A stretch of DNA of 64,000 nucleotides from Octopus vulgaris (Eukaryota). A model generated the notes under the pieces. The model ran no database searches and was not told the DNA's origin. It worked only from the letters and a program-made list of their open reading frames with translations. Shown here in pieces: positions 14,059-47,376 of this stretch (position 1 is the stretch's first letter; every line of letters begins with the position of its first letter). A program made the translations under genes and the position numbers. The DNA is taken from positions 6,634,001-6,698,000 of the forward strand of contig OX597825.1 in assembly GCA_951406725.2 (NCBI GenBank). The letters are read 5' to 3'.

Positions 14059-14274
14059 ATAATCCTTTCTATTATTGGCACAAGGCCTGAAATTTTGTGG
14101 GGAAGGGATCAATCGATTACATTGACCCCAGTGTTTAACTGGTATTTATTTCATCGACCCTGAAGGGATGAAAGGCAAAGTTGACCTCGGCAGAATTTGA
14201 GCTTAGATCGTAAAGATGGATGAAATGCCGCTAAGCATTTTGCCCAGTCTGCTAACAATTCTGCCAGCTCGCCA
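14059..14274 (-). mobile_element. tRNA-derived SINE family C (Meta/MESC-like central domain)
   Basis: Minus: ggcgagcTGGCAGAATTG...gctcaaattctgccgaggtcaactttgcctttcatccc...gtcgatgaaat...taccag; many copies in window. Confidence 0.85.
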
Positions 14275-14363
14275 CATTCAATTGCTGGCAAGATAATAAT
14301 ATAGAGTACATTATTTACATTATTTACATTTGACAGATATTTGTCCTCATCTTGTATGTTGTT

Positions 14364-14409
14364 AACACAACGTTTCTGCTGATATACTCTCCAGCCTTCT
14401 TCAGGTGTC
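14364..14409 (-). ncRNA. Minimal hammerhead ribozyme motif (P1)
   Basis: Minus: GACAC-CTGAAGA-A-GGCTG gagagtatat CAGCA-GAAA-CG-TT-GTGTT; one stem II mismatch. Confidence 0.72.
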
Positions 14410-14481
14410 TTGGGGAAACTTTGAACCTGGGTTCTCATTCCTAAGGTATACTTTTTCGATGTTATTATTATTATTATTATT

Positions 14482-14556
14482 CAGTTCACTTCTTGGAATT
14501 GAGCTCGGTATCTTGGGGTTAGTAGCCTGTGTTCTTAACCACTATGCCATATGCCC
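14482..14556 (-). promoter_or_regulatory. tRNA-like Pol III head of P1 (A box/B box)
   Basis: gggcataTGGCATAGTGGttaagaacacaggctactaacccc...GAGCTCAATTCC; other copies read AGTTCAATTCC. Confidence 0.75.
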
Positions 14557-14590
14557 ATAGAATGAGAACCCAGGTTCGAAATTTCCCCAA

Positions 14591-14633
14591 GTCACCTGAT
14601 GAAGGCTAAAGGGTATATCAGCCGAAACGTGTT
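14591..14633 (+). ncRNA. Hammerhead motif (P1), 3-nt deletion at the cleavage site
   Basis: gtcac-CTGATGA-A-GGCT aaagggtatatc AGCC-GAAA-cgtgtt. Confidence 0.65.
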
Positions 14634-14952
14634 AACAACAAACAAGATGAGGACAAATATCTATCAAATGTAAATAGTGTAAATAATGTACATAATTCCT
14701 CATCTCTTGAATATAGAACTGAACAATATAGAGTGTTAGAAGGAAATGGTTATATTTCCTATGCTGGTTAAAATAACAGAACTAAGCTGAATAATTTACT
14801 CAAAATTTCGTCACAATTAAGTCGCAGAGAATTATTTCATTCTTCTTGTTTTAATTATGTTTTTTGGTGGAATTACTGCATGCTGGTCCACCACAAGGTC
14901 CAGTCTTTATTGTGATGTTGTGGCTTCTATGCCTCGATGACTATGAAAGATA

Positions 14953-24062: not shown

Positions 24063-24302
24063 ATTTACATTATTTGTCCTCATCTTATTTACATATTTGT
24101 CCTCATCTTGTTTGTTGTTAACACGTTTTGGCTGATATACCCTCCAGCCTTCATCAGGTATCTTGGGGGAATTTTTGAACCTGGGTTCTCATTCCTAAGG
24201 TATTTTTTGATGTTATTATTATTATTATTATTATTAGTCAGGTCACTGCTTGGAATTGGACTCGGAATCTTGGGGTTAGTAGCCCGCACTATGCCACATG
24301 CC
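24063..24302 (-). mobile_element. Family P1, full unit (tRNA head-(AAT)n-hammerhead)
   Basis: Colinear with 14308-14556; motif at 24120-24162 has GAAA>AAAA and the 3-nt deletion. Confidence 0.85.
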
Positions 24303-34588: not shown

Positions 34589-35982
34589 CTGTCAATAAAT
34601 TGAGAAAAGACAAAATGCCAGTCTGCATGATTGGTCAGCTTCTGACATATTTCAATATTGGTTTGCTTTTCACTGAAATCTTAATTAATGAAAATAGCCA
34701 TCGTTCACATTTGTCCTACTGAAAGAATCTAACAGTAAATACATCCATTATAATAACTGAAGAACTTATTTCAATAAAACATATTTCCTATGTTATTAGA
34801 ATAGCAAAACTAATGTGTGAAAATATAAGATAAGAAAACGTCTTTGAATGATTCTATGACAACTTGATAATAACTTTGGTAATGATTGATAATTCCATCT
34901 TAGAATGGAAAAGCAATATATGATTCATTTACTCATTTACTGGATGACTGACTGACAGCAAGGACAGTTCAGTCCAATACTATCATCAGTCCAACTTGTA
35001 AAAGATACTGATGCTGATGATAATGATGATGATGGCATTACAATTTTAGTATAGACGGTGTTTAATTTTCAAAATGATAAATCAGTTTTATGGATGAAAG
35101 AGACAAATAATTTATTTATTGCCATCAATATAATTGCATTTAGTGAAAGATATATCCATTAACATGTATCACTGTTTCAGCTGAGGTGTGCAGGAATTTT
35201 ATTTAAGAAATTAGCAGTGAAGAATAAGAAATAACTTGAGTTAACTTGGAATTAAGAAGCCGACAATATCAGGTTATCTCATCTGGTATCATGGACAGGA
35301 AAGCAAAACAAGATTTGAAATATATTTTGTGCTATGATTTTACAAGCCATTTTATGATTCCATTTTTACCCCTCAGTTTCAGTTTGTGACATTTATTGAT
35401 TCCTTGTCATTCCTGTTGTTTATTTGTTAATTAGAAAATGGTTTTTGAATCTTCAGCTTTGGTTTAATTTCACAAATTTTTAACTGTTAAATGGTGTTAT
35501 AAGATATTTCAAGCGTTATGCCATTGGAGGTTAGACTACTAAGTACTATGTCGGCAGAGTCAAATAAACTGGTTTTTTTAAAGGATGGATAATTCAGAAA
35601 TATTTTTAATTTAATTAAAAATTTTGCTGAGAAGACAATCAGGAATTGCAGTTTCAACCTTGATTATAATAATAATCAGAAGAAAGACAATCCTGATACT
35701 AGTTACAAGTAAATCCCATTGGATGGTACCTATGGGAAGTCACATGGTAAAACAATTGTCTTTGAATGACTCAGTCCAGTAACTTCAAATAACCAAACAC
35801 TTTTGGTAATAAACAGGTATCTTCTAATCTCTTTCTCTATCCTCACTGCACTACTTATACTACTCCCACTGTTTCCTGTGGGCAGATCCCCCCCTCTCTC
35901 TTACTTTGACTGTTTCTCTATCTTTCTCTCCAACTCTCTCAGTTGCATTCCCTTTCTCAACTGAGAGGTACTTGTTTTGCAA

Positions 35983-36478
35983 GCTCCTGTGCTGGTACCA
36001 CATAAAAAGCACCCTTGCTGGTGCTATGTAAAACGCCCCTTACTGGTGCCATGCAAAAAGCACCCATGCTGGTGTCACATAAAAAGCACCTGTGCTGGAG
36101 CCATGTAAAATGCCCCCTTGCTGGTGTCACGCAAAAAAGCACCCGAGCTGGTGCCACATGAAAAACACTTGTGCTGGTGCCATATAAAAAGCTGGTGCCA
36201 CGTAAAACACAGCCGTGCCAGTTCCACATGAAGAGCACCTGTGCTGGTGCCATGTGAAAAGCACCTGCCATGGTTCCACATATAAATCACTGGTGCTGGT
36301 GCCTTGTAAAAAAGCACCGAATACACTCTGTAATGCGGCTGCTATTAGGAAGGGCATCCAAGTGTGAAAGCCCTGCCAAAACAGACATTTGGGGAGCCTG
36401 GTGCAACTCTCCAGCTTGTCAGCTCCTGTCAAACCATCCAACCCATGCCAGAATGGAAAATGGATGATGATGATGATG
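35983..36478 (+). mobile_element. RTE-LINE 3' end with expanded array of about 26-bp units
   Basis: About 13 units of gctggtgccac(a/g)taaaaagcacc.. followed by the family B end. Confidence 0.85.
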
Positions 36479-40074: not shown

Positions 40075-40144
40075 CAGGTCACCTGGAATTGAACTTGGAA
40101 TCTTGGGGTTAATAGCCCATGCTCTTAATCACTATGCCATATGC
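40075..40144 (-). mobile_element. Family P1 tRNA-like head only
   Basis: caggtcacctggaattgaacttggaatcttggggttaatagcc...actatgccatatgc. Confidence 0.8.
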
Positions 40145-46336: not shown

Positions 46337-46942
46337 TGTGAGAAATTCCCGCTGTCATTATCCAATTTCACTTATTGATCCCAAAGTTAGTATATGATAG
46401 CATTGTAGTAATAGTAATAGTAGTAGTAGCAGCAGCAGCAGTAGTAGTAGTATTAAGAGGGGGGAGAGGAAGATGGCAGAAAAGAAATACTGATATTCTT
46501 TGCAATTTGTCTTCCGTCTTTTTCGGATTGTTTTATATTTTCTATTGATTTCACAGACATAAATGCAATGGCTGCTCTCACACAACAATCTCGATATCAA
46601 CTAAGTAAATGGTAAAAGTGGAACCGAAACTATAATAGCTGTGTAAAAATAGTCTCAGAACAAAATGGAGGTCAATTTGTAGGTTGAGACTGCTATTTTC
46701 AATAACACTAGTACAGTCTTATTGGTACAGTGACCTCGCTACTAGAAATAAAGACAACAATGGTTCCTAATTTAGGCATAAAACCATAAGTAAACCCCAG
46801 GAACTTCATTTTATCAACCCCAGGAAAATAAATGGCAAACTTGACCTTGGGATTTTATATCAGAATGTGAGGAACCAGAACAACATCTTTAACGACACTG
46901 ACAATTCTGCAAATTCCTCCAACTGTAATAAAAGTAGTGACG

Positions 46943-47084
46943 TTATTTACATTTGACGGATATTTGTCCTCATCTTGTTTGTTGTTAACACAACATTTCG
47001 GCTGATACACCCTCCAGCTTTCATCGGGTGTCTTGGGGAAATTTCGAACCTAGGTTCTTATTCCTAAGCTATTTTTCGATGTTG

Positions 47085-47116
<32 letters not shown>

Positions 47117-47376
47117 CCAGTAGTTTTATTTTTGTAGCGTGCTTTCACTTCACTACCAAGCGCAGCTCTGTGTGCCTTGGGTATGTGCTGTGATTTGTTG
47201 TGATGCTCTGATGGTTATTGTATGGAAAGTGTTCTGCGTAGGATGTGTGCAATTATTATTATTATTATTATTATTCAGGTCATGGGCATATGGCATAGCG
47301 GTTAAGAGCATGGGCTACTAACCCCAAAATTCCAAGTTCAATTCCAAGTGGTGACCTGAATAATAATAATAATAAT
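46943..47376. mobile_element. Family P1, inverted, with nested R4/Dong 3' end
   Basis: Minus body with motif at 46987-47032; plus-strand tRNA head 47284-47358 followed by (aat)n. Confidence 0.85.
47117..47252 (-). mobile_element. R4/Dong-type LINE 3' end in (TAA)n
   Basis: Minus AHILRRTLSIQ* plus 3' UTR; (tta)n both sides. Confidence 0.75.

Follow-up and report, generated by a model that had tools for sequence, protein, structure and literature searches.

SINEs, by definition, ride on LINEs and are read by Pol III, an enzyme whose usual products are exclusively small non-coding RNAs; autonomous retroelements are defined as Pol II transcripts (or Pol I co-transcripts). Octopuses possess SINEs of their own: three tRNA-derived families, OK, OR1 and OR2, were reportedly described by Ohshima and Okada in 1994, and OR1 and OR2 are related to tRNA-Arg. 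The short unit that we analyse here has in common with them a tRNA-derived head and probably the animal group. It may already have been named as one of these families, or as a library family, our comparison having been made with the literature. OR2 is a CORE-SINE in one account (PMC4758252), while a 2026 annotation of octopus repeats gives 190 Penelope-like families and, as far as that account goes, lists no hammerhead (PMC13282606).

Penelope-like elements (PLEs) have hallmarks of a different kind: pseudo-LTRs (pLTRs), inverted 5′-truncated copies and a one-sided tail of 30–40 bp (as summarized in PMC8557442). Poseidon_Ac (PAc), from Anolis carolinensis, has a single ORF for a reverse transcriptase (RT) plus a GIY-YIG endonuclease at the C-terminal end, and this ORF begins in the hammerhead. 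Its protein cut and extended both target strands, at AT-rich targets. Reverse transcription starts at two internal sites within the first 111–172 nt of the ORF, and what lies between these sites is the tail; insertion in vitro still took place with ribozyme mutants, so that cleavage was dispensable for insertion in that PLE (PMC11167929). The octopus element is alike in having a single ORF of this composition that begins around a hammerhead, and in its AT-rich targets; both strands would be cut, and the tail would be set by two internal start sites, which here we infer. PAc, for which no tRNA-derived promoter is reported, differs from it in two respects: the octopus ATG lies upstream of the hammerhead core, and short octopus copies consisting of the pLTR alone start sharply at a tRNA head.

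Other systems share single parts of this arrangement. The SINE-like repeats SM-alpha and Sj-alpha of schistosomes likewise place a type I hammerhead after a Pol III-type promoter; these tandem repeats are described as non-coding, their hammerheads as canonical and their processing as starting from multimers, and the account, within its coverage, gives no autonomous element with the same head (PMC6765202). Octopus copies, by contrast, are single or inverted, with a minimal motif that is part of coding sequence. Non-LTR retrozymes are also short hammerhead repeats related to PLE pLTRs, in tandem arrays giving circular RNAs, and the accounts, as far as they extend, report no tRNA head (PMC7229834; bioRxiv 10.64898/2026.07.22.740005); they are seen as PLE derivatives (bioRxiv 10.64898/2026.07.22.740005; PMC7229834; PMC7761336). 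Unlike them, the octopus unit forms no arrays, and no circle joint (cleavage site to cleavage site) occurred among the 15 listed of 164 joints. In Cassandra, Helenus and Ajax, a small-RNA-derived Pol III promoter, tRNA or 5S, resides within the terminal repeat, as does the octopus head, a likely promoter of this kind; those are described as non-autonomous LTR elements (PMC10886601), whereas the octopus element is a PLE that encodes its own RT and endonuclease. Each part thus has its precedent, be it minimal-hammerhead pLTRs, retrozymes, repeats uniting Pol III signals with a hammerhead, or tRNA and 5S promoters in LTR elements. Our searches of the open-access literature yielded neither a PLE whose pLTR contains a tRNA promoter, nor a tRNA-headed family described along with the PLE that mobilises it, nor an autonomous retroelement read by Pol III.

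In the window, that is, the whole 64-kb stretch of DNA analysed, the copies are laid out as follows.

14295..14307, no strand: left target-site duplication, 13 bp, 12/13 identical to the right copy
14308..14556, minus strand: full arm (head, (AAT)n and body), whose end is the short RT start site, without tail
14482..14556, minus strand: tRNA-Arg-derived head; A box 14549–14539, B box 14506–14495 (one change here)
14462..14481, minus strand: (AAT)n linker, of a length that varies among copies
14308..14438, minus strand: beginning of the partner ORF, whose ATG is at 14438; its frame stays open across the hammerhead as far as the end of the arm
14364..14409, minus strand: minimal type I hammerhead motif; in this copy the pair that closes stem II is altered
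14560..14721, plus strand: inverted 5′-truncated arm, tail at its end; its hammerhead has a 3-nt deletion at the cleavage site
14692..14721, plus strand: 30-nt tail, equal to the ORF sequence between the two inferred RT start sites
14722..14734, no strand: right target-site duplication, pairing with 14295..14307
24063..24302, minus strand: second copy, its head with an internal deletion; short end
40075..40144, minus strand: head-only fragment
46940..47080, minus strand: body arm with a short end, its (AAT)n linker interrupted by another repeat
47284..47358, plus strand: head arm, head-to-head with the 46940 arm

The two 13-bp target-site duplications (TSDs) differ by one mismatch and agree exactly over 10 bp. 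Between them the minus and plus arms are joined head-to-head, and the 30-nt tail, which in the predicted fold would base-pair with the upstream body, is found on the plus arm alone. The anticodon-like loop of the full arm is at 14525–14519. An earlier note, made from the letters of the window, had recognized most of this. It placed a full minus-strand unit and a partial plus-strand unit inside one 13-bp TSD, saw an extra 30-nt tail on the plus unit only, and pointed to further copies at 24063, 40075 and 46943, all of which are present (the last as the body arm at 46940 and the head arm at 47284). It also held that no single copy is intact, and all four window copies do have a hammerhead defect. 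Its A box and B box are there as well, with one wrong letter in the latter, where this copy has C for the T given. Finally, it described a non-coding unit made of a tRNA-like head, (AAT)n and a body: the three parts are real, while 'non-coding' must be dropped, the body being the start of a retrotransposon ORF.

Other repeats lie close by. Directly left of the insertion, 14095–14270 belongs to another abundant short repeat family, D16, D18, D19 and D20 are further such families in the window, and a tandem array with a 26/52-nt unit occupies 35981–36318. Inserted repeats of 140–560 nt split the (AAT)n linker at 47117–47251 of the window and at loci L107, L108, L188, L193 and L216.

The unit is abundant. 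In an assembly of 2.8 Gb (227 contigs), a 32-mer of the body has 2,916 exact matches and a 19-mer of the head 5,491, with none for either reversed control; scaling these counts by the share of copies that retain the word (12/92 for the body, 41/120 for the head) gives a rough estimate of ~22,000 arms for the body and ~16,000 for the head. Twenty arbitrary 10-kb stretches contained one locus, so the window has more copies than is usual. Anatomy was read from the first 93 anchors of contig 1 in order of position, equivalent to 84 insertions without mirror hits, with a few segmental duplicates among them. The majority unit of these 93 anchors is 269 nt long. In size (<700 bp) and in its Pol III RNA-derived head with A and B boxes it agrees with the SINEBase definition of a SINE; the definition's simple-repeat 3′ tail is lacking, for the unit ends in ORF-start sequence and its simple repeat is internal. 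Compared with the tRNAs called in 34 fetched loci, a set without Arg-ACG and Arg-CCG, the head matches tRNA-Arg(TCT) best (52/75 nt) and Arg(TCG) next; against a profile of these tRNAs its E value is 4e-4. The A and B boxes are kept but the tRNA fold is lost: the acceptor and T stems are degenerate, ARAGORN matches the head only at a 70% threshold, and the fold z of the head is +1.1. Apart from that match ARAGORN finds no tRNA, and the Rfam tRNA and Hammerhead_1 models no match, in either the window or the near-consensus copy L104, because the hammerhead is minimal and the head decayed. Head and body nevertheless go together, most head-anchored loci having a body; the earlier note had named their separation in most copies as the case against it. 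Repeated insertion of the body into the (AAT)n of unrelated repeats was considered for the 33 of 93 anchors scored as head-less, and rejected: several of these have a head 400–650 nt upstream, behind an inserted repeat, or are truncated inverted arms.

Where does the body come from? Two loci (L007 and L016) continue past the tail into common sequence, and a search with that sequence gave 326 candidates; of 30 loci, several (L246, L250, L262, L264 and L265) run from the body into an RT. The body itself has an ATG immediately behind (AAT)n and from there reads open across the hammerhead, over 51 codons (chance 0.02, one frame), and a database relative, P0123, has the matching peptide at its N-terminus. 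None of 131 scored copies has an intact ORF, the longest frame being of 573 aa, so the ORF was read from the majority of broken copies, which gives one RT and GIY-YIG frame of ~835 aa. An apparent frameshift in it was an alignment artefact: 6 of 11 copies carry two bases at a place where the other five have deletions. The RVT_1 cut-off is passed by two genuine fragments; Pfam gives no match for the endonuclease fragment, whose assignment to GIY-YIG comes from motif and homology. The endonuclease has a CCHH motif, and no Zn-finger linker separates it from the RT, two features that serve to define Penelope/Poseidon (according to PMC8557442). An RT tree, built with no named Repbase references, groups the protein with others from Anolis, sea urchin and insects (99/98), apart from the Zn-linker families of this genome. 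Its closest relatives (P0121–P0129) are 52–75% identical, and an unnamed Anolis protein of 836 aa (P0211) is 37% identical over the ORF. We have little doubt that the element belongs to Penelope/Poseidon.

The far end of the ORF leads back to the head. The ORF end is included in seven of ten RT-anchored loci, each of which goes on with the stop codon, ~28 nt and the tRNA head, as do 3/3 extended loci; at L264 joined to L277, head and body stand at both ends (pLTR-ORF-pLTR), full-length coverage coming from few loci (13 short extensions of partner loci). From stop to ATG there are thus 28 nt, the tRNA head and (AAT)n, with no pyrimidine tract. The body being the ORF start, and the head lying behind the stop codon in 7/7, we therefore take the unit to be the element's pLTR. 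This agrees with the earlier note in its preference for a PLE over a LINE as the mobilising agent, and the autonomous RT and GIY-YIG element sharing body and tail, for which it recommended a search, has been found in the ~835-aa ORF. Other PLE families retrieved with the GIY-YIG Pfam model (a young 781-aa family and others) were rejected as partners: they share no DNA with the unit, apart from one inserted copy at L095. The young family, of the Zn-linker type (L081–L088), has an intact 781-aa RT and GIY-YIG frame in 16 of the 148 listed matches, an overlapping upstream frame of up to 479 aa (for example L084, 267–1703 and 1625–3967), and a 3′ UTR that contains a TATA-like box as well as CCAAT/CRE-like repeats in tandem; PLEs do not usually have a second long ORF.

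The geometry of insertion is informative. An inverted arm is present in 44 of the 84 insertions. Among 40 two-arm insertions with both 3′ ends scorable, the tail is on exactly one arm in 39, on neither in one and on both in none. A TSD, mostly of 10–14 bp, flanks 30 of the 39 one-tailed insertions, versus 1.2 (maximum 4) in shuffled pairings. In these 39 the tailed arm is complete and the short one truncated 11 times, the reverse holds 13 times, both arms are complete in 6 and both truncated in 9. Either arm can be truncated (13 versus 11), and the arms are therefore independent cDNAs; fold-back from a single cDNA is ruled out as their general source. Direct head-to-tail dimers are rare (L163 is an example). 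Two-armed insertions would fit twin priming from two internal RT start sites.

The hammerhead consensus proposed in the earlier note is, in the majority of 93 copies, as it was described. It has all four marks of the minimal motif of PLEs: the core, an extra base between 9 and 10.1, G10.1–C11.1 and the palindromic 15.2–16.2 (as given in PMC4209133). Apart from CpG decay, its core varies only at the free position 7 (T 64, A 25). The motif is intact in 31 of 93 anchored copies and in 0/4 window copies. Covariation of the stems, proposed beforehand as a test, is present: 6 of 7 pairs change on both sides and 0/500 shuffles reach the score, in a comparison with eight hand-picked motif matches of related elements that were chosen by their stem II pattern and are therefore biased at stem II. 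Self-cleavage of the unit is best regarded as a putative activity. In the predicted fold of the whole unit stem II would form (p ~0.9) and stem I would not (p 0.02), copy ends do not pile up at the cleavage site among anchored copies or RNA-seq reads, and cleavage would separate the ATG from the rest of the ORF. The same genome contains at least three other hammerhead families (L127–L146), found with Hammerhead_1, for which 8 of 59 matches reach the Rfam cut-off; one of them has a long stem II insertion, and they are distinct from the unit.

If short copies had a history of their own, it should be written in their variants. We compared 199 solo bodies with 23 ORF-linked ones from the fetched loci, the latter a small sample that several searches favoured. 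Non-CpG divergence is 3.7% for ORF-linked and 3.6% for solo bodies. All common variants (position 7, one site each in head and body, a 9-nt duplication and the loss of 3 nt at the cleavage site) occur in both classes, with no common variant private to the solo copies in this comparison. Common recurrent indels in the coding part are of 3 or 9 nt, homopolymer one-base slips and a 5-nt deletion in five copies excepted. The separate non-autonomous family of the earlier note is therefore not upheld: the head is inside the autonomous element's pLTR, and variants and divergence are equal in both classes. Nothing here points to a lineage of solo copies, although one with a tail might yet serve as a source.

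Evidence on transcription comes chiefly from copy ends and base composition. Of the head arms, 49 of 102 in the body-anchored set and 24 of 41 in the head-anchored set begin at −8..+5 (counts that include inverted arms and a few mirror duplicates). The stop rate is ~0.08 per nt at the head's 5′ edge versus ~0.002 upstream in the ORF end, ~40 times less; 12 of the 102 arms run 55 nt or more into the ORF end. Many junctions retain 3–6 nt upstream of tRNA position +1, and a 5-bp hairpin stands at the head start, in the autonomous element too. The 2,650-nt majority sense strand contains no run of four or more T, versus 30 runs of four A (GGGG is likewise absent). Other PLE ORFs of this genome have 9 T runs in 2,343 nt, 8 in 1,722 nt and 1 in 1,002 nt. 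Decayed single copies have 0.40 per kb, versus 2.2 per kb in outside relatives (twenty of 1.5 kb or more, with 78 T runs in 36 kb), though in 3 of these 20 the coding part is also free of them. The absence is moderately significant: P is 0.007 by base shuffle, 0.015 by back-translation, 0.029 by synonymous shuffle and 0.084 by first-order Markov model. T runs stand between ORF end and hammerhead in 11 of 18 outside relatives that could be scored (some loci being duplicates). No tRNA-like segment follows the ORF end in 79 metagenome loci of relatives 31–54% identical, about half of which reach that end. One metagenome contig has a tRNA-like segment (L324:2393–2461) upstream of a truncated related ORF, with T runs after it; it looks like an unrelated SINE rather than a pLTR.

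RNA-seq data came from two runs (~6% of each read) of a fragmented, possibly unstranded library with a coded species label. Reads on the unit number 10,067 and 8,302, equally in both directions, and 77% extend into unrelated flanks; in neither run is there a pile of read starts at the head or of ends at the cleavage site. This is the pattern of read-through from host transcripts, uninformative about a small or gonad-limited Pol III RNA. In two RNA runs (X23 and X24), L104:1396–1660 shows A>G at 27–30 places and T>C at 17–21, versus 4 and 2–6 in unmatched contig runs; this looks like A-to-I editing of inverted arms. The unit is present with similar variants in runs of species labels A, B and C (X1, X16, X23, X24), and next to none of its words are found in D and E.

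We propose, with a probability of roughly 0.6, that the unit is a Penelope/Poseidon pLTR in which a captured head resembling tRNA-Arg is combined with the first ~51 codons of the ORF, the head being likely to act as a Pol III promoter. The proposal draws on what the copies display directly: the anatomy, the partner ORF, the head in both pLTRs, the asymmetry of the tail, the TSDs, the 5′ pile-up and the lack of T runs. Transcripts would begin a few bases upstream of the head. The encoded protein would cut the two target strands at points 10–14 bp apart, and reverse transcription, by analogy with the Anolis Poseidon element, would begin at two internal sites ~30 nt apart near the ORF start. With no more than 240–270 nt between these sites and the 5′ end of the RNA, every transcript started at the head, whether full-length or made from a solo copy, would yield a short SINE-like unit; priming at the downstream pLTR would give the rarer ORF-bearing copies. 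Two cDNAs, one from each start site, would be joined head-to-head, and one arm would thereby be tailed and the other tail-less. Whether Pol III transcribes the coding element stands at about even odds: the 5′ pile-up and the T-run absence point to it, and the lack of an explanation for the translation of an uncapped Pol III RNA counts against it. More tentative still, and somewhat less likely than not as a whole, is the complete scenario, in which an autonomous coding retrotransposon swapped Pol II for a captured tRNA promoter, purged terminators over its 2.6-kb unit and came to be translated from a Pol III transcript, the SINE-like family being a built-in by-product of an RT start near the RNA 5′ end.

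The head might instead be a passenger only, derived from an old tRNA-SINE, that became fixed in the 3′ UTR of an ordinary Poseidon element transcribed by Pol II. Short units would then be truncated 3′ ends or solo pLTRs, their sharp edge due to a Pol II start site or to the hairpin at the head. Known PLEs are described as using an internal Pol II promoter overlapping the pLTR intron (in PMC8557442), and the presence of that hairpin in the autonomous element itself, the lack of a head-initiated pile in RNA-seq and the arms running on into the ORF end all favour this account. Yet a mere 28 nt separate stop codon and head, the A and B boxes persist in a head that has lost its tRNA fold, and the entire sense strand avoids T runs, which most scorable outside relatives have between ORF end and hammerhead. 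On balance we find it unlikely. That a longer Pol II transcript is cut by RNase P at the head's 5′ edge, the tRNA-like segment being a processing signal that sets the RNA 5′ end, accords with the clustering of 5′ ends near +1; degenerate acceptor and T stems, the bases kept upstream of +1 at many junctions and T-run avoidance, which it leaves unexplained, make it very unlikely.

The remaining alternative is a separate non-autonomous SINE with its own Pol III masters, processed as dimers by the hammerhead, borrowing a PLE protein and later recombined into the autonomous element. Solo bodies do far outnumber ORF-linked ones (199 versus 23, even with searches favouring the latter), and a tailed solo copy, which holds the promoter and both start sites, could retrotranspose again. 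Such a family would, on the other hand, be hard to reconcile with the lack of solo-private variants, with equal divergence and with coding-part indels mostly of 3 or 9 nt. Direct dimers are rare and inverted arms place two hammerheads on opposite strands, nor do copy ends accumulate at the cleavage site; we hold this origin to be decidedly improbable.

Returning to the reading of the unit as a pLTR with a promoter-like head, its meaning goes beyond one locus. The 39 one-tailed insertions among 40 are genomic support, independent of Pol III, for two-site, two-strand priming in PLEs, a model of a poorly understood cycle that becomes testable in vitro. The element also shows how a PLE can spawn a tRNA-headed short family with no shared 3′ tail. 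The SINE-like unit and its engine are one sequence, joining the two categories with which we began, and, if Pol III does read the ORF, nature would offer an example of a long protein translated from a Pol III transcript.
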